In this document: positions 4,252 to 64,000 of the stretch, one piece after another
Layout: every line of letters starts with the position of its first letter
Numbering within the stretch: position 1 is the stretch's first letter
Assembly: GCA_050013475.1 (NCBI GenBank)
Contig: JBEKFE010000002.1
Location: 221,910-285,909, forward strand
Direction of reading: 5' to 3'
Origin: Bacteroidales bacterium
GTDB lineage: Bacteria; Bacteroidota; Bacteroidia; Bacteroidales; VadinHA17
DNA: 64,000 nucleotides
Notes under the pieces: model-generated
The model's input: only the letters and a program-made list of their open reading frames with translations
What the model was told of the DNA's origin: nothing
Database searches by the model: none
Translations under genes and position numbers: made by a program

Positions 4252-4383
4252 TCAGCCTTTGGCTTCAGGCTCCTTTGCAGCAAATTTCCTGTCATAAAGA
4301 ACCACCGCGGATTTTATTATTATCCACGAAACCAGTATGAAAACCGGCCATACGAGGTATGTAAGAATCTGATTGATGTACAT
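4252..4383 (-). CDS. Unannotated 43-aa single-TM small protein (candidate cytochrome bd accessory/CydX-like; speculative)
   Basis: Hand translation gives ATG(4383)...TGA(4252) = MYINQILTYLVWPVFILVSWIIIKSAVVLYDRKFAAKEPEAKG. This is one hydrophobic helix plus a charged tail. It is below the ORF-track length cut-off, on the same strand as cydAB and downstream of it. The ATG sits directly after a TGCAAGAC array. Confidence 0.35.
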   Translation of the reverse strand: MYINQILTYLVWPVFILVSWIIIKSAVVLYDRKFAAKEPEAKG

Positions 4384-4392
4384 GGTCTTTTA

Positions 4393-4420
4393 GTCTTGCA
4401 GTCTTGCAGTCTTGCAGTCT
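4393..4420 (-). repeat. Tandem octamer array (TGCAAGAC) x3.5 on the minus strand
   Basis: Plus strand reads gtcttgca gtcttgca gtcttgca gtct. On the minus strand the array is followed by TAAAAGACC and then the ATG of the 43-aa ORF. Confidence 0.95.
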
Positions 4421-4431
4421 AAGAACTAAAT

Positions 4432-4538
4432 CACGGAGTGACACTGTTTCTCAGCGTTCTCTGCGTAAAGGCTCTGCGTTCCCTGCGGTTACTTTTTTTC
4501 TTTAACTTTTATCTTGTGACTTTTATCTTTTGTCTTTA
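4432..4538 (-). repeat. Composite purine-rich (coding-strand) word-repeat spacer downstream of cydB
   Basis: Contains cacggagtgacactgtttctc (also at 12223-12239 and 12265-12285). It also has four C(T/C)C(T/A)GCG words at 4450, 4459, 4472 and 4481. Two acttttatctt(g/t)tg units follow, then the motif atcttttgtcttta (4525-4538), which includes the cydB stop codon. Confidence 0.9.
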
Positions 4539-5666
4539 GTAAGCATGATCTTCACTGTTCATCTCGTCCTCGGTTATTTTATTCATTGTTATTGCTCTCC
4601 AGGCGTACCAGATATAAGCCAGAACAAAGGGTATAAGGAATGAGACAAACATCATTGTTCTGAGAGTGAACATGCTTGATGAGGCATTTCTGATCGTCAG
4701 AGAGTTCTGAAGGCTTAGGGTTGAAGGGTAAAATGCGGTGTTTTTAAATCCTGCCAGCATGAACAATGCAAATACTGCTGCAACCGTACCGGCTCCGGAG
4801 TACCATATTCCCTTTGTGCTTCCTTTAAAAAGTGATATGAAAAGGCCCCAAAGCACTCCAACCACGCCGGCAAGGAATAATATCAGAACAAGCGGCATGC
4901 TGGTCAGGTTATGCAAATATTTGAATTTTTCCAAAGTTATACTTCCGGTGGAAGGATCAACAGCAAATCCTTTTGCAGCAAGTATTGACCCTACAAAATA
5001 AAGGAAGAAAACAAGGAAATATAATGAATTAATTATCAGCTTTCTGCGGGCCCTGCTTACAACCTCTTCATTATCGATAGTATTGATGAGATATAAAAGT
5101 CCGTTAAGCCTGACAAGGAACAGAACTGCAAATCCAAGAGCAAGATTCCTTATGTCCAGAACAGCTTCCAGCCCGTGCCATCCCGCTTCCCACTGAACCT
5201 GGTTCATTGAATTCAGTGTGAACCTGGCTCCGGTGAAAAATGTCGCAACTGCAGTTCCGATCAGCAATGGTCCCACTGAGCCGTTAATGATCAGGAACAT
5301 ATCGAATGTTTTCTGCCCGTAGACATTTGATGGCTTGGCCCTGTATTCATAGGCAATAGCCTGTAGAATGAAGCTGAAGAGAATTGCCATCCAAACCCAG
5401 TAAGCTCCTCCGAAGCTGGTCGAATAGAATAATGGAAATGAAGCAAAGAAAGCCCCGCCGAAGGTGACCAGGGTTGTGAAGGTGAATTCCCATTTCCTTC
5501 CAAGGGTGTTTACTATCATCTTCCTTTGGAGCTCATTTACGGGGATTGAATATATGAATGTCTGACCGCCCTGTACGAACATCAGGAAAACCAGTAAGCT
5601 TGCAAGAATTGAAACAATTATCCACCAGTAATTCTGCAGGAATATATGTGTTATCATGGTCGTCAT
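4536..5666 (-). CDS. cydB: Cytochrome bd ubiquinol/menaquinol oxidase subunit II
   Basis: 376-aa polytopic protein. Its start overlaps the cydA stop by 4 nt, the classic cydAB arrangement. Confidence 0.9.
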   Translation of the reverse strand: MTTMITHIFLQNYWWIIVSILASLLVFLMFVQGGQTFIYSIPVNELQRKMIVNTLGRKWEFTFTTLVTFGGAFFASFPLFYSTSFGGAYWVWMAILFSFILQAIAYEYRAKPSNVYGQKTFDMFLIINGSVGPLLIGTAVATFFTGARFTLNSMNQVQWEAGWHGLEAVLDIRNLALGFAVLFLVRLNGLLYLINTIDNEEVVSRARRKLIINSLYFLVFFLYFVGSILAAKGFAVDPSTGSITLEKFKYLHNLTSMPLVLILFLAGVVGVLWGLFISLFKGSTKGIWYSGAGTVAAVFALFMLAGFKNTAFYPSTLSLQNSLTIRNASSSMFTLRTMMFVSFLIPFVLAYIWYAWRAITMNKITEDEMNSEDHAY

Positions 5667-11322: not shown

Positions 11323-12165
11323 TCATCCAAAAAGTGTGATATAAAGAAATACCATCGGGAAGGAAATAATTGTACTGTCGAAGCGGTCGAGGAAACCCCC
11401 GTGACCCGGCATAATATTCCCGGAATCCTTTACTCCTGTACTGCGTTTAAGCATAGATTCGACAAGATCGCCGTAGGTACCCATAACAGATATGATAACC
11501 GAGATCACGATCCATCCTTTTTTGTCAACCACCCCCATCCATCCCGAAAGGAACCATGCTGCAACGATGGTGAGAATAAATCCTCCGGCAAATCCCTCCC
11601 ACGATTTTTTTGGAGAGATCCTTTCCATCAGATGATGCTTTCCAAAGCTCACACCGGCCAGGTAGGCACCGGAATCATTAATCCAGAGCAGTATGAAAAA
11701 TCCGACAACGATGCCCGGTGAGAAGATCATATTTCCAGTTTTTAATAATGGTTCAAGGCCTGTATGGGAGAATGCTGAAAAAGGGAACATCGAGAATGGA
11801 ACTGCTGAATAAGTTACCGGGAAAAATGTATGAGCCAGAGAGTCGAACGGCTTTTCTGTCTTCCTGTATAGCTCTGCAATCATTATTGCCGCGCTTAGGG
11901 GTATAAGAATAAGGTACCATCTTGGTTTCAGCATACCCGAGGATACAAGAACCGAAATTGCGTAAACTGCTGACCCTGCTATTATGCCGGCTGCGATCTG
12001 AGGTTTTATCCCGGTGCTTCTGATCATATTATAGTATTCGTACTGGGCTCCGGCAAGCAATATATAACCGGTCAGCACGAAAGAGACCGGATGCAGCCAG
12101 AATCCTCCCAGAACGAATAAAACAATGAATACACCTGTAAGCGATCGTCTGATAAGATTATCCAA
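11323..12165 (-). CDS. cdsA: Phosphatidate cytidylyltransferase
   Basis: 280-aa polytopic protein with the CdsA signature SMLKRSTGVKDSGNIMPGHGGFLDRFDS. Confidence 0.9.
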   Translation of the reverse strand: MDNLIRRSLTGVFIVLFVLGGFWLHPVSFVLTGYILLAGAQYEYYNMIRSTGIKPQIAAGIIAGSAVYAISVLVSSGMLKPRWYLILIPLSAAIMIAELYRKTEKPFDSLAHTFFPVTYSAVPFSMFPFSAFSHTGLEPLLKTGNMIFSPGIVVGFFILLWINDSGAYLAGVSFGKHHLMERISPKKSWEGFAGGFILTIVAAWFLSGWMGVVDKKGWIVISVIISVMGTYGDLVESMLKRSTGVKDSGNIMPGHGGFLDRFDSTIISFPMVFLYITLFG

Positions 12166-12222
12166 GATTGAAAACTTTAATGTTCGCAGAAGATTTAAGT
12201 TACAGATTGATGAATAAATTAA

Positions 12223-12325
12223 CCACGGAGTTACACTGGTTTTTTACAGTTTTCCCCGATCTTTCGTGGGAGTAGCACTGTTTTTCTCTGCGTCCCTCTG
12301 TGCCTTCTCTGTGTCTCTCTGTGTA
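12223..12325 (-). repeat. Purine-rich (coding-strand) word-repeat spacer downstream of ftsH
   Basis: Contains ccacggagttacactgg (12223-12239) and cgtgggagtagcactgtttttctc (12265-12288). CTCTG(C/T)G occurs at 12286, 12296, 12307 and 12317, a 10-11 bp phasing. A 47-nt run with no A on the plus strand spans 12278-12324. Confidence 0.9.
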
Positions 12326-12339
12326 ATTTTTCTCTCACT

Positions 12340-14442
12340 TCAGACTTCTTTTTCCCCTTTACCTTTATGGCTCTTCTCCTTCTCGCCTTTCTCCTTTTTA
12401 CTTTTTCCCTTCTCCTTTTTTACCGGTTCGGGGAGAGCCAGTTTTTCAACCTCCTTTACTGCTGGAGCATCTTTCTTTTCAGAAGCTCTTTCCTTATCCT
12501 TATCAGCTTTCCGTTTTCCGAAAACGCGTTCAAGGTCTTCACTGAATATAACCTCTTTTTCGAGAAGAAGCTCTGCAAGTTCTGTCAGTCCTTTAATATT
12601 CTTCTTAAGCACTTCGGTTGCCCTCAGGTATGATTCATCTATTATCGCCTTTACCTCACTGTCGATCAGTTCCGATGTTTTTTCGCTATATGGTTTTGTA
12701 AAGTTGAAATCCATCTGTCCTGTCGAATCATAGAAACTGATATTACCTACCTTTTCACTCATTCCGAAGTATGCAACCATTGCATAGGCCTGCTTGGTCA
12801 CTTTTTCCAGGTCACTCAGAGCACCTGTTGATATTTTCCCAAAGATCAGTTCCTCCGAGGCTCGGCCGCCAAGCGCGTATGCAACTTCATCGAGTATCTG
12901 TTCCTTTGTTGTAAGCTGACGCTCCTCCGGAAGGTACCATGCAGCACCAAGTGCTCTTCCTCTTGGGATTATCGTAACCTTAACAAGCGGGCTGGCATAC
13001 TCAAGCAACCAGCTTACAGTAGCATGACCTGCCTCATGGTAAGCAATGGTCTTCTTCTCCACCAGTGATACAATCTTGTTCTTCTTTTCCATCCCTCCCA
13101 CTATCCTGTCGATGGCATCGAGAAAATCCTGCTTTTCAACAATCGTCTTATTTTTTCTGGCAGCAATAAGTGCTGCTTCATTACATACGTTTGCTATGTC
13201 AGCACCAGAGAATCCGGGGGTCTGTTTGGCAAGAAAACTGACATCAAAATTCTTTTCAAGCTTTATCGGCCTGAGGTGTACCTTGAAGATCTCCTCTCTC
13301 TCCTTCAGATCAGGAAGCTCAACGTGGATCTGCCGGTCGAACCTTCCGGCTCTTAGAAGAGCACGGTCAAGAATATCTGCCCTGTTTGTGGCCGCAAGTA
13401 TGATAACACCCATGTTTGTCCCAAAGCCATCCATCTCGGTAAGCAACTGGTTGAGCGTGTTCTCCCTTTCGTCATTTGCACCGAAATTGGGGTTTCTTCC
13501 CCTTGCCCGGCCTACTGCATCTATCTCATCGATAAACACAATGCATGGAGCTTTTTCCTTTGCCTGCTTGAAAAGGTCTCTCACTCTTGATGCGCCGACC
13601 CCGACAAACATTTCAACAAAATCGGATCCCGAGATCGAGAAGAAGGGTACATTTGCCTCACCTGCAACAGCTTTGGCCAGAAGGGTTTTACCTGTTCCCG
13701 GAGGGCCCACGAGCAACGCTCCCTTTGGTATCTTGCCACCAAGCTGTGTATATTTCTTTGGATTTTTAAGGAAATCGACGATCTCCATCACTTCAGTCTT
13801 GGCCTCTTCAAGGCCTGCAACATCATGAAAATTGATCTTCACATTTGTATCCTTGTCAAATATCTGGGCCCTTGATTTTCCAACGTTGAATATCCCCCCA
13901 GCGCCACCGCCGCCGCCGCTTGTCATTCTCCTCATGAGGAACATCCAAAGCAAAAGGAAGAAAGCCAATGGAAGAATCCATCCAAGAATATCACCAAAAT
14001 AATTTTTCCGTTTTGTGTCTTCGGCATAAATAAGATCTTTATCCGCGTAACCGGCTGCCTTCTGGGTTTCGATCACAAGCGTTTCGAATTTGCTAAGATC
14101 CCCGATGTTGTAAATAAAGATTGGTTTCGCTGTCGACAAGCCGAAGTTACTCCCGCTTTTGGGAAGTTTTGGATATTTTCCAGCCTTTACAGCTTCATCC
14201 TTAATTGTGATCTCAGCAAAATCCCTGTTTACCACAACTATTTCCTGCACATCGTGGTTCACAAGCATCTCCTTCAGCTCACCGGTAGTTATCTTCTCAG
14301 CTGGCTTGCTGTTGAACATGAACTGAAACACCAGTATGGATACCGCAATGATCGCAAAGATCCAGTTGGAATTGAATTTTGGTTTCTGGTTCTTGTCTGT
14401 TTTGTTTTCAGAACCCTGATTTGTATTATTTTCTTCTGCCAT
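12340..14442 (-). CDS. ftsH: ATP-dependent zinc metalloprotease FtsH with Lys/Glu-rich C-terminal tail
   Basis: 700 aa with Walker A GPPGTGKT, the SRH region, and zinc motif HEAGH. The last ~60 aa are a low-complexity K/E tail. Confidence 0.97.
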   Translation of the reverse strand: MAEENNTNQGSENKTDKNQKPKFNSNWIFAIIAVSILVFQFMFNSKPAEKITTGELKEMLVNHDVQEIVVVNRDFAEITIKDEAVKAGKYPKLPKSGSNFGLSTAKPIFIYNIGDLSKFETLVIETQKAAGYADKDLIYAEDTKRKNYFGDILGWILPLAFFLLLWMFLMRRMTSGGGGGAGGIFNVGKSRAQIFDKDTNVKINFHDVAGLEEAKTEVMEIVDFLKNPKKYTQLGGKIPKGALLVGPPGTGKTLLAKAVAGEANVPFFSISGSDFVEMFVGVGASRVRDLFKQAKEKAPCIVFIDEIDAVGRARGRNPNFGANDERENTLNQLLTEMDGFGTNMGVIILAATNRADILDRALLRAGRFDRQIHVELPDLKEREEIFKVHLRPIKLEKNFDVSFLAKQTPGFSGADIANVCNEAALIAARKNKTIVEKQDFLDAIDRIVGGMEKKNKIVSLVEKKTIAYHEAGHATVSWLLEYASPLVKVTIIPRGRALGAAWYLPEERQLTTKEQILDEVAYALGGRASEELIFGKISTGALSDLEKVTKQAYAMVAYFGMSEKVGNISFYDSTGQMDFNFTKPYSEKTSELIDSEVKAIIDESYLRATEVLKKNIKGLTELAELLLEKEVIFSEDLERVFGKRKADKDKERASEKKDAPAVKEVEKLALPEPVKKEKGKSKKEKGEKEKSHKGKGEKEV

Positions 14443-25049: not shown

Positions 25050-25124
25050 GGTGGTTGTAGCTCAGTTGGTTAGAGCGCCAGATTGTGGCTCTGGAGGTCG
25101 CCGGTTCGACCCCGGTCTTCCACC
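25050..25124 (+). tRNA. tRNA-His (anticodon GTG) with encoded G-1; no encoded CCA
   Basis: Hand-folded cloverleaf: G-1, acceptor gtggttg/cttccac, D arm gctc-agttggtta-gagc, anticodon arm ccaga-ttGTGgc-tctgg, T arm gccgg-ttcgacc-ccggt, discriminator C. Positions 5:68 and 6:67 are U:U mismatches. Confidence 0.85.
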
Positions 25125-25135
25125 CGTCAAAAAAG

Positions 25136-25168
25136 AGGCTATCCCGAAAGGGACAGCCTTTTTTATTG
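25136..25168. terminator. Bidirectional terminator between tRNA-His and ccsBA
   Basis: aggctatccc-gaaa-gggacagcct forms a 10-bp stem with one A/C mismatch. It is flanked by an A-run (25129-25134) and a T-run (25159-25165). Confidence 0.8.
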
Positions 25169-25179
25169 CTGCAACTTGG

Positions 25180-25214
25180 CTTTTGTCTTTTATCTTTTGT
25201 CTTTTATCTTTGTT
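25180..25214 (-). repeat. Tandem 14-mer (CTTTTGTCTTTTAT) x2.5 overlapping the ccsBA stop codon
   Basis: Units lie at 25180-25193 and 25194-25207, with a partial unit at 25208-25214. The ccsBA TAA (25204-25206) lies inside the second unit. Confidence 0.95.
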
Positions 25215-28200
25215 CAACCTTCCTCCATCTGTCATATTTAAGGTATGCCAGGAATGAAGCTGCAACAAGCAATATTACTGTAACATAAACGAACGACGGT
25301 ACGGGAACGGGGTCACCCGATGCATATGAATGCAGCCCCGAGAGGTAATAATTAACTCCAAAATAAGTCATCAGCACCGACGAGAGGGCGAAAAGCGAAA
25401 GGAGATTGAAAGTGAAGATATCCTTCAGTCCCGGTATCATCTTTGAATGAATGACAATGCTGTATATGATGATCGTTATAAGCGACCATGTCTCTTTGGG
25501 ATCCCATCCCCAGTACCTCCCCCACGATTCGTTTGCCCAGATAGCACCAAGGAAAGTCCCTATTGTCAGAAAATAGAGGCCAAGTGTCAGAGTCCTGTAA
25601 TTGATAATTGTAAGTTCATCAATTGTAGTAGAGATCCTGTCAATATTCTTCCTGTTTGAAAATATAAGTAAAATCAGGTTGATAAGACCAAGAATGGCAC
25701 CAAGTCCAAGGAATCCATAGCTTCCGGTTATTACCGACACATGAATTGTGAGCAGGTACGACTTAAGTACCGGGACCAGGTTTGTAATCTCGGGATCCAT
25801 GAAACTGAGATGAGCTACCATCAGTGTCATTGACCCCAGTACGGCGGTAGCTGAAAGAGCAAATGGCGACTGCCTGCTGAAAATAAATCCTGCAAGCAGC
25901 GTTACCCAGGATATAAAGATCATCGATTCGTACCCGTTACTCATCGGTGCATGACCTGCTATGTACCATCTCATTCCAAGACCTAGGGTATGGAACAGGA
26001 ATCCGGCGAATAGCAGCCAGCTTAAAGTCTTGACAAAAAGTGAATTGCTTTTTGCACCTTTTATTACCATTACTATCAGTCCGATAAGCATAACTATTCC
26101 AAGGGTGGCATAAAAGGGGAACAGACGTTCAAATATTTTTGCCTTATAGTAAAATATCTCAACATTTGTCTTCGCGTTCGAGGGCAAAGCATACCCTGCA
26201 AACCTTGCCTGGTAATCGCTTACTGACCTGGCGATCCTTTCCGCATCGGAGAGCGCGTTGTTTTTTAACGCCTCCGCAAACATCGGCATTACATTTTTGA
26301 GATAAAGTGAATCCTCGCTGCTGATGGCATTTTTCAGGGCTTCATCAGGGGGTCCCCAGCTATTGATCTTATTCTTAAGCGGGAAAAGCTTCATGAACTC
26401 ACCCGTATTGATCATATATACAATATTCACCCTCTCATCTATCTTCATCACCTCCTTATCAAATTTATTTCTTTCTCCTGGTGATTTGGCATAGGCTTTC
26501 TGAACATACTCTGAAAGCTTATATCCGCCGCCACCGTGCATATCCACAATATCACCAAATGAAGCATAACTGCTGCTGATGCCGATAAGCTTCTGGATCT
26601 CGCTGTTTGCTATCCTGATCATCCGGACATTTTGCCAGTTTTCAAAATCAAAGTACACACCGAGGAAGACCTGCATTGATGAAAGACCTTCAAACTCATT
26701 CTTGTGAGTAACCTTTCTGAGTATGTCATTGCTAAGAGTGTACAATGGCTTGGTCCTGCCCTTCTGATCCTGCACCAGCACCCTGCCAAACTCTTCTGCT
26801 GCTTTCCTGTCGGGAACAAGCTTCTGGGCATTAACAGCAGATAAACCCGAAAGGATCAGCAGTATGGATATAACTGTTACTGATCTTCTGAAAGGGGATC
26901 TCCAGTAACCCGGATTGATATTCCTGAAGATTGATCTCCTGTTGAATATTGACAGGATAATAAACAGGAACATAATGGCATATCCTGTATATGTCACAGA
27001 CATACCAATAGTGTCGTGATTAATTGAAAGTATTGTACCATGTTCATCCTGATCGAATGATGACTGGTAAAACCGGTAGCCTTTGTACTTTAGAATGTTA
27101 TTCATGAATATCATAAAGCTTTTTTGCGTTCCGGATACTTTATCAATTAATACCACGTCACTCTTGTAGCCTGAAGGACTGTTTGATCCGGGATATCTTT
27201 CAAAAATGAACTTGTTAAGCTTCAGTGTAAAAGGCAGGCTCATTATCCTTGACCCGTAGAACATCTCAACGATTTTGCCGTTCACATGTGCTGTACCTGT
27301 TGTCTGATATTCATTCTTTTTATCCCAGAGGGTAATCGCTACTGGTTTGTCTCCCGCAAAGACATGGAATATCATAGCATTCTGATCAGTCTCCTGCTGT
27401 TTAGGATCAACCGGAACAGGTTTTACAAATCCACTTAAAGACATTTCCTGCGGAATCAATTTCATCCCTTTGAAGGCATAAATCTGCATTGCCTTCATGA
27501 CAACTTTTTCCCTAGCCTCAACAGGTATGCTGTCGCCGTGCATCATACCCATCTGCGCAAAGTCTGAGGCCGACGAGATATGAAATCCGGCTGAATCAGA
27601 GGAAACTGAAATATCAGCAGGTTCCTTGCTGTTGAACCCAATGCTGAAGCCGGAAGCAGTTACCTTTTCACCGCCTTTTATAATAAGATCCTCCATTTCC
27701 ATATGACCCGTCATCACGATTAGTGAAACTATTGGTACTCCTGATGGGGAATCGATTATTCCTTCTGTTGCGTTCTTTATAACCTCTGAAAGTTCAATCT
27801 CGTAATTCTCACCCCCTGCAGAAAATCTTCTAAGATATTTTCCTGACGATACTGAGCTCATCGTGAATCCTGTCATCTTTTCAGCCAGAACATCTCCTTT
27901 TTCATCCTTAACAGAATAGCCAATAAATTTATCTGATGAAAAACATCTGTTTTCTTCCGCTCTTTCTCGTATATGTATTGACCCTTCATATCCAAAATAC
28001 CTTGTTATTGCTGCACCTGTAAGGATAATAATAAATGCTCCATGAAAAAGAAATACTGTGAGCTTTGCCCTTCTGTAAAGCTTAAGTTCAATGATCTGAC
28101 CGATAAGATTCGCTGCAAGCAGCAGCATGATCAGACCAAACCACCACGATCCATATACCAGATTATAGGCTGAGGCAGAGCCGAAATCATTCTCAAGAAA

Positions 28201-28284
28201 CGTAGCGACAGCCATAGCCAGTGCAAAACATACTAACAAAACTCCCATCATAATGGGAGAAAAAAGGAATCTTACAACTTTCAT
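25204..28284 (-). CDS. ccsBA: Fused system II cytochrome c synthase CcsBA (ResB-like + CcsA/ResC)
   Basis: 1026 aa. The N-terminal part is ResB-like with a large periplasmic region. The C-terminal polytopic part carries the tryptophan-rich WWD motif WGRYWGWDPKETWSL. Confidence 0.9.
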   Translation of the reverse strand: MKVVRFLFSPIMMGVLLVCFALAMAVATFLENDFGSASAYNLVYGSWWFGLIMLLLAANLIGQIIELKLYRRAKLTVFLFHGAFIIILTGAAITRYFGYEGSIHIRERAEENRCFSSDKFIGYSVKDEKGDVLAEKMTGFTMSSVSSGKYLRRFSAGGENYEIELSEVIKNATEGIIDSPSGVPIVSLIVMTGHMEMEDLIIKGGEKVTASGFSIGFNSKEPADISVSSDSAGFHISSASDFAQMGMMHGDSIPVEAREKVVMKAMQIYAFKGMKLIPQEMSLSGFVKPVPVDPKQQETDQNAMIFHVFAGDKPVAITLWDKKNEYQTTGTAHVNGKIVEMFYGSRIMSLPFTLKLNKFIFERYPGSNSPSGYKSDVVLIDKVSGTQKSFMIFMNNILKYKGYRFYQSSFDQDEHGTILSINHDTIGMSVTYTGYAIMFLFIILSIFNRRSIFRNINPGYWRSPFRRSVTVISILLILSGLSAVNAQKLVPDRKAAEEFGRVLVQDQKGRTKPLYTLSNDILRKVTHKNEFEGLSSMQVFLGVYFDFENWQNVRMIRIANSEIQKLIGISSSYASFGDIVDMHGGGGYKLSEYVQKAYAKSPGERNKFDKEVMKIDERVNIVYMINTGEFMKLFPLKNKINSWGPPDEALKNAISSEDSLYLKNVMPMFAEALKNNALSDAERIARSVSDYQARFAGYALPSNAKTNVEIFYYKAKIFERLFPFYATLGIVMLIGLIVMVIKGAKSNSLFVKTLSWLLFAGFLFHTLGLGMRWYIAGHAPMSNGYESMIFISWVTLLAGFIFSRQSPFALSATAVLGSMTLMVAHLSFMDPEITNLVPVLKSYLLTIHVSVITGSYGFLGLGAILGLINLILLIFSNRKNIDRISTTIDELTIINYRTLTLGLYFLTIGTFLGAIWANESWGRYWGWDPKETWSLITIIIYSIVIHSKMIPGLKDIFTFNLLSLFALSSVLMTYFGVNYYLSGLHSYASGDPVPVPSFVYVTVILLVAASFLAYLKYDRWRKVEQR

Positions 28285-52681: not shown

Positions 52682-52868
52682 TTTGTATACTTAAATTTTA
52701 TATAATGTCCATATTATGGGCATTTATTGCCCCTATATTAGACAAATATATATAATAATCTTTTGATCCTATTACTTAAATAACTAATTTTCAGAGTGTA
52801 AAAAATAGCGGTATGGTAATTGAAACATAGGGAAAAGTGCTTAGGGCACAGAACAAAGACCTAAAGAC

Positions 52869-52916
52869 TGCAAGATTGCAAGATTGCAAGACTGCAAGAC
52901 TGCAAGACTGCAAGAC
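52869..52916 (+). repeat. Tandem octamer array (TGCAAGAT)x2-(TGCAAGAC)x4
   Basis: Six exact head-to-tail 8-mers. The array is preceded by cTAAAGAC and followed by TTCAGACAAAGAGACAACAT, then the ATG of the permease gene (52937). Confidence 0.97.
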
Positions 52917-52936
52917 TTCAGACAAAGAGACAACAT

Positions 52937-62283: not shown

Positions 62284-62389
62284 ATATTCTTTGAATAATA
62301 ATCAAATTTATAACTTTTACTTTTATCCCGCAATCCGGGATTTGGCTTCGCCGAGCTCCGCTTCGCTACGGTTCGTAGCTTTGCCCTCA

Positions 62390-62403
62390 ATCTTTTGTCT
62401 TTA
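62390..62403 (-). repeat. Copy of the 3'-end motif TAAAGACAAAAGAT
   Basis: atcttttgtcttta is identical to 4525-4538. It abuts the priA TAG (62404-62406) and provides an in-frame second stop, TAA (62401-62403). Confidence 0.9.
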
Positions 62404-64000
62404 CTAGTACGGATCAACATCAATATTTATCCTCAGGGAAGCTGCCCCTGATATCTTCTCAACCTTATTTACAGCCACAGTTATCAGTTCCCTGGCTCTT
62501 GCCATCGGTTTATCCTTCTCTACTTTTATTAAGATATTTTTGATGTACCAGGATTGAATTCTTGATACAGGAGGGAATTCCGGTCCAAGTACCCGCGCAC
62601 CGAATATTTTTTTCAGGTCATCACCCAGGACGGAGCAAAATTCATTAAGCTTCGATTTGTCCCTGTGTTTCAGTACGATCCTCACGAGGCGGCAGAAGGG
62701 TGGGTAAATGAAAAGTTTCCTTTCTTCAAGCTGTGATTCGTACATTCCCATAAAATCATTATTAAGAACACGCTGTATGACCTTGTTGGCCGGATCGGAG
62801 GTCTGTATTATCACCCTTCCATGCTTCTGTCTTCTTCCTGCCCTTCCGCTCACCTGCGACATCATCTGGAAGGCTCTTTCGTGGGCTCTGAAATCAGGGT
62901 AGTTAAGCATCCCGTCTGCATTAAGTACTCCGACCACTGTCAGGTTTTCGAAATCGAGTCCTTTTGATATCATCTGGGTCCCGATAAGAATATCTGTCTG
63001 ACCATTTTCAAATGCAGAGATGATCTTCTCAACCGAATTTTTATTCCTGGTGGTATCCTGGTCCATCCTTGCAACCTTTGCTTCAGGGAAAACAATCTTT
63101 ATCTCATCCTCGATTTTTTCAGTACCAAAGCCTTTTGTGACAAGGGATATATTCCCGCAGCTTCCGCATTTCGAAGGCATTATGGAAGCCGATCCGCAAT
63201 AGTGGCAGACGAGTCTGTTGATCTCCTTATGGTAAGTAAGGTTCACGGCACACCTGTTGCAGGTTGGTATCCATCCGCACTCCGAACACTCGATGTAGGG
63301 AGAAAACCCTCTTCTGTTTCTGAAAAGAATTATCTGTTCACCCTTTCCAAGCGCTTCATCCATTACATTAAGAAGCTGAGGAGAAAAATGTGAAACCATC
63401 TGTTTCTTCCGGTAGGCTTCCCTGGTATTGGCAATGATAATTTCCGGAAGATTAATTTTCCCGTATCTCTCACCCAGCCAGACATAACCATACCTGCCCG
63501 AAAAGGCGTTATACATGGTTTCAACTGAAGGAGTGGCTGAACCCAGGATCGTCTTCGCTTTCCACATCGAAGCCATCATAATGGCAGAATCCCTGGCATT
63601 GTATCTTGGCGCAGGGTCATGCTGCTTATATGAACTGTCATGCTCTTCATCAATAATGATCAGGCCGGGATCGTGGAATGGAAGGAACAGTGACGACCTG
63701 GCTCCGATAATAAGCCTGATTCCGTTTCCGTTACCAGGTTGTGCCAAGCTGTTCCATATCCCTATCCTTTCTGCATCTGTCAGCCTCGAATGGAAAACAG
63801 CTGTTAATTTTCCGAAATGCCTTCTCAACCGTGTAATTATCTGTGCAGTCAGTGCGATCTCAGGAAGCAGATAAAGAACCTGCTTCCCATTTTTCAGCTG
63901 TTCGTCAATAAGCCTTATGTACAACTCTGTTTTACCGCTGGATGTAACTCCATGAAGCAGAATTATTTCCTTCTCCTTTAATTGTGAGATAATTGACTGA
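62404..64000 (-). CDS. priA: Primosomal protein N' (PriA helicase), 5' end beyond window edge
   Basis: Zinc-binding CxxC pairs are present (CSECGWIPTCNRC, CHYCGS, CGSCG). Hand translation upstream of the track's TTG start continues as ...LLHGVTSSGKTELYIRLIDEQ (Walker A), so the ORF runs to the window edge. Confidence 0.93.
   Translation of the reverse strand, partial: QSIISQLKEKEIILLHGVTSSGKTELYIRLIDEQLKNGKQVLYLLPEIALTAQIITRLRRHFGKLTAVFHSRLTDAERIGIWNSLAQPGNGNGIRLIIGARSSLFLPFHDPGLIIIDEEHDSSYKQHDPAPRYNARDSAIMMASMWKAKTILGSATPSVETMYNAFSGRYGYVWLGERYGKINLPEIIIANTREAYRKKQMVSHFSPQLLNVMDEALGKGEQIILFRNRRGFSPYIECSECGWIPTCNRCAVNLTYHKEINRLVCHYCGSASIMPSKCGSCGNISLVTKGFGTEKIEDEIKIVFPEAKVARMDQDTTRNKNSVEKIISAFENGQTDILIGTQMISKGLDFENLTVVGVLNADGMLNYPDFRAHERAFQMMSQVSGRAGRRQKHGRVIIQTSDPANKVIQRVLNNDFMGMYESQLEERKLFIYPPFCRLVRIVLKHRDKSKLNEFCSVLGDDLKKIFGARVLGPEFPPVSRIQSWYIKNILIKVEKDKPMARARELITVAVNKVEKISGAASLRINIDVDPY

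Follow-up and report, generated by a model that had tools for sequence, protein, structure and literature searches.

An A-rich heptad repeat begins at the stop codons of unrelated genes in uncultured Bacteroidales

Why do three unrelated genes of one bacterium, encoding a cytochrome bd oxidase subunit (cydB), a cytochrome c biogenesis protein (ccsBA) and the primosomal helicase PriA (priA), end in the same short sequence? The question is raised by a stretch of 64,000 nucleotides (nt), here called the window, from a Bacteroidales genome of the GTDB lineage VadinHA17 (GCA_050013475.1, contig JBEKFE010000002.1, positions 221,910 to 285,909), in which an initial annotation had noticed the plus-strand 14-mer ATCTTTTGTCTTTA fused to the stop codons of these minus-strand genes. 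The analysis shows that the motif belongs to a multi-copy A-rich element, also present in other species of the genus, which starts at or in the stop codons of unrelated, intact genes with its A-rich strand in the sense of the messenger RNA (mRNA). As to what this element is, the leading but still tentative answer is that the motif makes up the initial two units of an A-rich heptad element, dispersed and non-coding, within a lineage-wide class of 7- or 8-nt repeats, arising and persisting by the mechanism proposed below.

The genome comprises 3.46 Mb in 30 contigs with a GC content of 0.43, the window lying on contig 2. Its DNA was traced to 19 DNA sequencing runs from peat or wetland metagenomes, with no RNA run among the matches, and its relatives by PriA are all uncultured Bacteroidales or Bacteroidota metagenome-assembled genomes.

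The motif is the start of a longer tract

The 14-mer is exact at 4525-4538 and 62390-62403 of the plus strand, and a third copy at 25192-25205 carries one mismatch; with one extra T it reads ATCTTTTGTCTTTTA at 25192-25206. The 2.5-fold tandem 14-mer proposed around this third copy corresponds to a period-14 array of 2.3 copies at 25180-25211 in Tandem Repeats Finder (TRF). The relation to the stop codons is likewise as described: the motif supplies the TAA of cydB (4536-4538), contains the TAA of ccsBA (25204-25206), and places an in-frame TAA (62401-62403) directly after the TAG of priA (62404-62406). Pfam confirms all three gene names. The recurrence is also far above expectation, the 12-mer TAAAGACAAAAG being found twice in the window where 100 shuffles predict 0.04, and five AAG words at period 7 twice where 0.00 are predicted.

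What required correction is the unit itself. The real repeat is a heptad tract of about 32 nt, of which the 14-mer forms the first two heptads. Its consensus, AAGAYAAAAGAYAAAAGTMAMAAGAYAAAAGT, consists of 4.5 heptads (AAAAGNN) with five AAG words at period 7, and it has 27 genomic copies at up to 6 substitutions and 6 at up to 2, against none in a shuffled genome. The heptad tracts of the window span 4503-4538 and 25177-25211, and the tract at priA is cut in two by a 63-nt hairpin element. The cydB tract (array C2:226412-226446, contig and position; window 4503-4537) is one substitution off the consensus and is seen by TRF as a period 7/14 repeat at 4494-4537; the ccsBA tract is six substitutions off and covers the last two codons of the gene together with its stop.

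Genome-wide, AAAGACAAAAG has 45 copies, which place the 14-mer within tracts of 7-nt units such as AAAGACA, AAAGATA, AAAGTCA, CAAGACA and AAAGTAA. A register-based regular expression, ([AC]AAGNNN)x3+, finds 52 arrays, compared with 5-7 across three shuffles, and 17 of the 52 fall within open reading frames (ORFs). T-rich heptad-like tracts (CTTTTGY) were also seen within ORFs at C3:152052, C1:284167, C3:159247 and C6:216847; judged by eye, they encode the Leu/Phe core of signal peptides at protein N-termini (MKTKLLLLSLL.F.F..), so that part of the motif's coding matches are ordinary signal-peptide codons.

Copies start at stop codons in one orientation

Genes were called as greedy non-overlapping ORFs of at least 80 amino acids, giving 2768 ORFs that cover 90% of the genome, with exact stops and inexact starts, for which reason any pile-up before start codons would look blurred. 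A tract was counted as flush when its array started at -15 to +5 nt from the last base of a co-oriented stop codon. For comparison, 33 intergenic tracts were placed at random positions and orientations within their own spacers in 5000 simulations, the other 19 of the 52 lying inside ORFs or without two flanking genes.

Tabulated over the whole genome, as the initial annotation had suggested, distance and orientation to stop codons reveal a bias both to stops and to one strand. The A-rich strand is flush with a stop in 14 of 33 cases, against a simulated mean of 3.3 and with none of the 5000 simulations reaching 14, whereas the T-rich strand is flush only once (simulated mean 3.3). At start codons, the A-rich 3' end and the T-rich strand are each found four times, against a simulated mean of 2.6. 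Flush tracts occur at any of the three stop codons and begin in or directly after the stop, as in TAA-AGACA, TGA-AAAGATA and TAG-CAAGACA. Non-flush copies in co-directional spacers lack polarity (about 4 in the A-sense, 7 in the T-sense). Translation of the T-rich strand is itself partly blocked, since TGTGAC creates a TGA.

The genes that end at these tracts are intact. All 15 upstream ORFs carry Pfam domains, several of which extend to the last residues. Besides CydB, CcsBA and PriA, they include PPK2, NuoC, OTCase, FolB, Pol IV, a sulfatase, M14 and M20 peptidases, a LytTR regulator, TonB_C, DUF456 and a helix-turn-helix (HTH) protein, and no common functional theme was found among the 15. 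The orientation bias recurs in a second species (G036). There, 20 loci picked by sequence pattern alone hold 22 tracts, of which 8 are flush with the stops of ORFs of at least 100 codons in the A-sense and none in the T-sense.

Gene ends persist while arrays change in relatives

The degenerate 18-mer AAAGAYAAAAGAYAAAAG is present in 29 of 36 other genomes of the GTDB genus, with up to 67 matches, and in 2 of 24 other families of the order, while a reversed-pattern control gave 0-1 matches across the 61 genomes. Orthologous gene ends were scanned with a neutral detector, defined as three units of period 7-8 with at least 70% identity starting no more than 8 nt from the stop, for which controls gave at most 0.5% in coding sequence and at most 2.4% in shuffles. 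Arrays adjoin the cydB stop in 16 of 29 relatives and the priA stop in 28 of 79, and the units at cydB vary by species (AAAGGCG, CAGGCGA, CAGGGCA, GGAGAGC, AAGACGG, AGGCATC and others). The number and type of units likewise differ between species at orthologous ends. At priA, at least three AAG heptads adjoin the stop in 14 of the 79 relatives, and AAGAYAAAAG lies within 6 nt of it in 11; the unsplit form TAAAGACAAAAGATAAAAGATAAAAGTAAAAAG adjoins the priA stop in relatives. In contrast, only 1 of 29 relatives has an array at the ccsBA stop, where the C-terminal tail varies among the 30 loci, and the ccsBA end has gained its array only in this lineage. The array rate at cydB and priA ends across the genus is far above the genome baseline of 4.7%, an excess that is partly ascertainment because the three loci were chosen for having an array in this genome; the contrast between cydB and priA on the one hand and ccsBA on the other is free of this bias.

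These comparisons bear on the earlier proposal of an insertion-prone repeat that prefers or creates gene ends. The preference stands, in one orientation and in a second species too. Creation or remodelling of gene ends does not, since the C-termini ..H[AKVIL]Y of CydB, with which ..EDHAY of this genome lines up, and ..DVDPY of PriA (nearly all) immediately precede the stop with or without arrays.

Arrays of many families crowd the same position

The A-rich element belongs, as a local family, to an already known class of short tandem repeats, having at least three head-to-tail units within the 6-11 nt of heptamer/octamer repeats. TRF (minimum score 30) returned 1624 rows that merge into 1421 loci, mostly of period 6-12, and those of period 6-16 occupy 5.0% of the intergenic sequence (351 kb) compared with 0.63% of the coding sequence. 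Their coverage is highest, at about 10%, 20-30 nt past stop codons, against about 4% at equal distance before starts. At positions -2 to +3 from the end of the stop, 16, 14, 9, 11, 11 and 10 arrays begin, compared with 1-10 at each of the other 19 positions from -12 to +12, and the start-codon profile is flat. Among the 84 arrays starting at -3 to +5 from the stop, 58 have a period of 7 or 8 and 13 a period of 14 or 16. The neutral detector finds arrays at 129 of 2741 gene ends (4.7%), 175 of 5000 random intergenic positions (3.5%) and 59 of 2763 start-anchored positions (2.1%).

The unit families at stops include GTTGAAGN, GTCTTGCR, GCGTAGA, CCGGTAR, AGGCGCAR, GGTGCTN, GAGGTGA and GTAGTAA, and the stop codon is often the first triplet of the array's first unit. 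Orientation is largely consistent within families (AAAGAYA 9:1, GTCTTGCR 8:0, GTTGAAGN 6:3, GGTGCTN 4:0, GTCTGGGR 3:0), although the labels were drawn from the stop-flush list, which makes the direction partly circular but not the within-family consistency. The arrays combine intergenic enrichment and several unit families, as in repeats like the short tandemly repeated repetitive (STRR) sequences of cyanobacteria, with a stop-proximal coding-strand bias like that of the G-rich heptamers of Rehm et al. (2015, PMC4692102).

Several simple rules for this position were considered and rejected. The arrays do not in general work as a fail-safe stop device, since only 14 of the 84 at stops block every reading frame and 35 contain no sense-strand stop triplet. 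A purine-rich sense strand holds in only 52 cases against 30 and is broken by GTCTTGCR. A hairpin between a stop arm and a start arm that couples translation was discarded, since a spacer's two terminal arrays come from families that are not complementary to each other. A promoter on the T-rich strand was dismissed by eye: TAnnTTTG is the Bacteroidetes promoter consensus, and TATCTTTTG is one T short of it and would fire antisense towards the gene's interior.

A neutral tract or a signal

In the favoured explanation, the tracts would arise and be renewed by slipped-strand replication on a 7-nt register, would be copied or homogenised between loci by recombination, and would persist in the sole stretch of a spacer that is free of signals, from the stop codon to the terminator or next promoter. 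Persistence in such a stretch would leave the proximal edge of a tract flush with the stop. The tracts would then be transcribed as roughly the first 30 nt of the 3' untranslated region (UTR), forming unstructured spacer that carries no dedicated termination signal. Given their strict polarity, they must also be shaped by some factor that works on the sense strand, and this factor could be the mRNA or the terminating ribosome.

Other data fit this explanation less well. The polarity of flush copies, 14:1 here and 8:0 in the second species, goes beyond what a neutral filler model provides, and native post-stop sequence without arrays has just a mild excess of A (0.39 at +1, T being 0.28). The element also has a fixed order of unlike units (GAY, GAY, GTCAC, GAY, GT) and is not a plain microsatellite. 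Moreover, the exact 19-mer AAAAGTCACAAGAYAAAAG is shared by 11 of 40 further species of the genus (control 0), preceded by the same two GAY heptads in nearly all of 24 inspected copies, even though the species that have it are just about 52-75% identical to this genome in the C-terminal region of CydB and about 65-77% in PriA. A 19-mer and a unit order common to such diverged species are not predicted by pure slippage and drift. Variation within arrays, in a count that may be biased by column registration, falls mainly on the N positions, which vary at 17.5% and 27% while those of AAAAG vary at 0.4-7.8%, a pattern that would fit selection on the AAAAG core. Finally, slippage itself was not seen: three metagenome contigs span the cydB array with no differences, at low depth and in contigs that drop variants. 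These contigs were assembled from reads of four runs, the other pieces being paralogous arrays with loose ends, and a search of metagenome contigs for the exact 34-nt pattern across the cydB end gave no matches. The three misfits in polarity, in unit order and 19-mer conservation, and in N-position variation keep a strand-specific role at the RNA level alive and, to a lesser degree and on the strength of 12 hairpin elements, an origin in mobile elements.

The first of these alternatives, possible but on the unlikely side, is that the five-heptad AAAAGNN tract is a selected, strand-specific 3'-UTR RNA signal, in which AAG or AAAAG words 7 nt apart are bound by an oligomeric protein or by a single-stranded RNA-binding protein with several oligonucleotide-binding (OB) folds. 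The tract would influence mRNA stability, ribosome release or re-initiation as soon as translation has terminated. The arrangement would be like that of HutP, which binds (UAGNNNN)x3, or like one cold-shock or S1 domain for each heptamer, and the invariant AAAAG with variable NN at regular spacing is compatible with sites of the HutP/TRAP type. The sense polarity of flush copies speaks for this alternative, as do the shared unit order and 19-mer at many non-orthologous loci, the near-identical TAAAGAYAAAAGAY directly past the priA stop in 11 of 79 relatives, and the predicted single-stranded state of the tract. MacGregor (2015, PMC4679880) proposes binding of S1, Csp or CsrA to heptamer repeats. 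However, unrelated families (GTCTTGCR, GTTGAAGN, GGTGCTN, GCGTAGA and others) are equally flush, so that the position at stops can be taken without this sequence, and many orthologous ends have no array at all (28 of 29 relatives at ccsBA, 51 of 79 at priA, 13 of 29 at cydB). Furthermore, 5 of the 14 flush copies face a convergent gene, and a role for the downstream cistron can therefore not be general; no candidate protein was found.

A wider form of the same thought, which we consider improbable, would make the AAAAGNN tract, and perhaps all stop-locked 7/8-nt arrays, a strand-specific mRNA signal at translation termination in a lineage without Shine-Dalgarno pairing. As a platform that is periodic and single-stranded, the tract could then be bound by an oligomeric RNA-binding protein or by S1 and so set the fate of message or ribosome, and polarity, unit order and persistence at the same gene ends would reflect selection rather than slippage.

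An origin in small mobile elements of the kind of miniature inverted-repeat transposable elements (MITEs) or repetitive extragenic palindromes (REPs) is more doubtful still. Here the arrays would be by-products or landing sites of mobile hairpin elements, or the 32-nt element would be mobilised in trans, with insertion and excision at AAG-ending targets leaving target duplications of 7-8 bp that pile up into arrays. The element does share with MITE/REP-like sequences its near-identical copies at non-homologous loci, and the identical multi-unit order at no fewer than eight loci indicates copying between loci. In addition, a hairpin of about 44 nt has 12 copies, nearly all exactly between array units, and at priA the motif flanks one such inserted hairpin on the left. 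Against these points, 12 hairpins compare with hundreds of arrays, a target duplication within a periodic array is indistinguishable from insertion between existing units, and transposition would not predict polarity relative to genes. The A-rich element has neither terminal inverted repeats nor a hairpin or stable fold, and no transposase is linked to it. Genes of PF05635 (23S_rRNA_IVP) were rejected as an explanation, being present in 53 of 61 relatives including motif-free families; their counts do not track the motif, one genome having 33 matches and no such gene (G027) and another no match and six genes (G014).

That the tract is a transcription terminator or part of one, as the idea of a termination-related signal had implied, is very unlikely. 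Its position directly after stops would suit a terminator, and facing inverted pairs between convergent genes (C11:80360/80406, C15:32422/32460, C3:135136/135187) could pair into an A/U-rich stem. Single copies, however, are unpaired in minimum-free-energy folds, and the tract shows no GC-rich hairpin followed by a U tract, the mark of an intrinsic terminator. Neither the cydB spacer (z 0.12) nor the priA spacer (z -1.03) folds better than its shuffles, the next cistron is co-directional at the cydB and NuoC gene ends, and a separate canonical hairpin with a U tract follows the ccsBA array by about 15 nt, shared with a convergent transfer RNA (tRNA) gene at 25051-25124 on the plus strand. Rfam 15, searched over the window at gathering score, returned two tRNAs only and no match for the tract.

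Lastly, chance recurrence of low-complexity A-rich sequence could appeal to the AT-rich genome and to the 4 of 100 shuffles that match the observed window count when up to two mismatches are allowed, but it is refuted by the 12-mer, five-AAG, genome-copy and reversed-pattern controls given above.

Features of the window and associated elements

The features around the three gene ends are collected in Table 1.

Table 1. Features at the cydB, ccsBA and priA gene ends (window positions)
Feature	Position	Strand	Description
Conserved hydrophobic 43-amino-acid ORF (MYINQILTYLVWP...)	4252..4383	minus	downstream of cydB, after a repeat-filled spacer
AAGACTGC array, 3.6 copies	4392..4420	minus	cydB spacer; TRF, 100% matches; ends 8 nt before the ATG of the 43-amino-acid ORF
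A-rich five-heptad element	4503..4538	minus	reads T, then AAAGACAAAAGATAAAAGTCACAAGATAAAAGTTA; first bases give the AA of the cydB TAA
cydB, cytochrome bd oxidase subunit II	4536..5666	minus	PF02322 Cyt_bd_oxida_II, 1.1e-63
Intrinsic terminator hairpin with flanking A and U tracts	25128..25168	minus	-20.6 kcal/mol, z -3.31; 1 of 200 shuffles as good
A-rich heptad array CAAAGATAAAAGACAAAAGATAAAAGACAAAAGCC	25177..25211 (C2:247086-247120)	minus	TRF period 14, 2.3 copies, 100% matches
ccsBA (ResB-CcsA fusion), cytochrome c biogenesis	25204..28284	minus	Pfam ResB and Cytochrom_C_asm
priA-end array, right half ATAAAAGTAAAAGTTAT	62310..62326	minus	just upstream of TAAATTTG box and DUF6165 gene
63-nt GC-rich hairpin element, long variant of TGAGGAGCGAAGYGACGAAATCCCGC..GCGGGA	62327..62389	minus	inside A-rich array; predicted stems
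priA-end array, left half TAAAGACAAAAGAT	62390..62403	minus	holds the in-frame second stop TAA after the priA TAG
priA, primosomal helicase	62404..64000, past window end	minus	PriA_C, Zn_ribbon_PriA and helicase domains (Pfam)

The hairpin element reads TGAGGAGCGAAGYGACGAAATCCCGC-NNNN-GCGGGA and is GC-rich; priA carries the long form. Its other copies lie at C1:293289, C4:122232, C17:30977, C24:22655, C6:168799, C19:42898, C19:35581, C19:41405, C20:26407, C4:194969 and C2:105288, and junctions resembling the insertion at priA were found at C4:194957 and C2:105340. The arrays that hold them have 7- or 8-nt units (ACTGCAAG, GTCGGAAG, AYAAAAG), in some cases with a single unit on each side, for example ACTGCAAG at C19:41405. 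The hairpin element either targets arrays or helps to build them by its insertions. A second dispersed sequence, CCCCTCC(N2-4)GGAGGGG with ..GGGGTGGGTTTT behind it, is frequently found next to A-rich tracts, either 9-13 nt past the tract or right in front of it (L154, L175, L177, L182 and L184 in G036; L008, L009; C3:244363) and is probably a terminator-like hairpin family of the clade.

Downstream of priA (loci L043-L122), a conserved AAAGATGCTAnnTTTGAA box precedes the DUF6165 start by about 20-60 nt. In some species the box directly follows the priA stop, and arrays are inserted between stop and box; the AAAGAT within the box, which resembles the repeat unit, could have seeded it.

The start ATGTATAT.. 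of the small ORF behind cydB is present in most of the 30 loci inspected. The ORF has no Pfam match and no credible NCBIfam match, and it may encode an unannotated small cytochrome bd subunit like CydX. The octamer array before it is one of several AAGACTGC arrays that end flush with start codons (..GCAAGACC ATG, ..GCAAGAC ATG) or lie in a tRNA leader, at window 4392-4420 and 52864-52917 and at C1:42796, C6:198656 and C24:8697. GTCTTGCR, found after stops, is the reverse complement of AAGACTGC, which makes them one family with opposite polarity at the two ends of genes. Elsewhere in the window, the last 25 or so codons (12340-12420) of an ORF ending at 12340 encode a K/E/G-rich tail, KKEKGKSKKEKGEKEKSHKGKGEKEV, that resembles a translated A/G-rich heptad array, and downstream of it lies a palindrome of repeats (12165-12340, minus strand) composed of CACAGAG decamer units, a CCCACGAAAGATCGGGG hairpin and inverted CTCCGTG units.

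Significance

The A-rich family provides clean experimental handles: a defined 32-nt sequence, a near-absolute polarity at stops that is repeated in a second species, an exact 19-mer conserved between species, and persistence at the cydB and priA ends while units change. Should the polarity reflect function, a step that has gone unrecognised in Bacteroidota would be implied, either where translation ends or at the 3' ends of mRNAs. Otherwise the arrays would serve to mark slippage and truly unconstrained spacer DNA. For genome annotation, the arrays account for tandem stops and some odd C-terminal tails.

Comparison with known systems

Repeats of 7 or 8 nt that crowd stop codons are now seen in cyanobacteria, Xanthomonas, Beggiatoaceae and many uncultured Bacteroidales. 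A literature search outside subscription journals gave no description of the A-rich family or of arrays in this clade.

The STRR heptamers of heterocystous cyanobacteria are tandem 7-nt units, intergenic and lineage-specific, with several families per genome, and are ascribed to slippage. Long simple sequence repeats (LSSRs) were reportedly described by Mrazek and colleagues in 2007. To our knowledge, the definitions of STRRs and LSSRs include neither positional locking to stops nor a conserved multi-unit order.

REPs and bacterial interspersed mosaic elements (BIMEs) of enterobacteria are GC-rich extragenic hairpins that crowd the first nucleotides after stops and are mobilised by REP-associated tyrosine transposases (RAYTs). 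REPs within 15 nt of a stop are said, in work by Liang, Rudd and Deutscher from 2015, to affect the terminating ribosome. The A-rich element resembles REP/BIME sequences in being dispersed, extragenic and close after stops, and differs from them in being unstructured and without a linked enzyme.

The TAACTGA heptamers of MacGregor (2015, PMC4679880) are direct repeats of marine Beggiatoaceae, some Cyanobacteria and five Bacteroidetes. They occur in 2-6 copies, mostly a few nt before start codons with some overlapping an upstream stop, and a role for RNA-binding proteins is proposed there, unproven. Like the arrays described here, they are intergenic heptamers in one orientation to genes and share spacers with other heptamers; unlike them, the A-rich family shows no enrichment at starts (4 against 2.6) and a strong one at stops.

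The nearest counterparts are the G-rich heptamers GGGAATC of Xanthomonas and GGGGAYT of Nostoc (Rehm et al. 2015, PMC4692102), which lie preferentially less than 50 bp from stops on the coding strand, are mostly transcribed, overlap an ORF or stop in some cases and occur in convergent inverted pairs. The 7-nt units, short arrays, a small preferred copy number and convergent inverted pairs are common to both systems. The A-rich family differs from what is described there in its composition, which leaves no G-quadruplex potential, in its fixed heterogeneous unit order and in its Bacteroidales host. Compared with that description, the present data resolve the flush position to -2 to +3 nt and show a near-absolute polarity (14:1 and 8:0).

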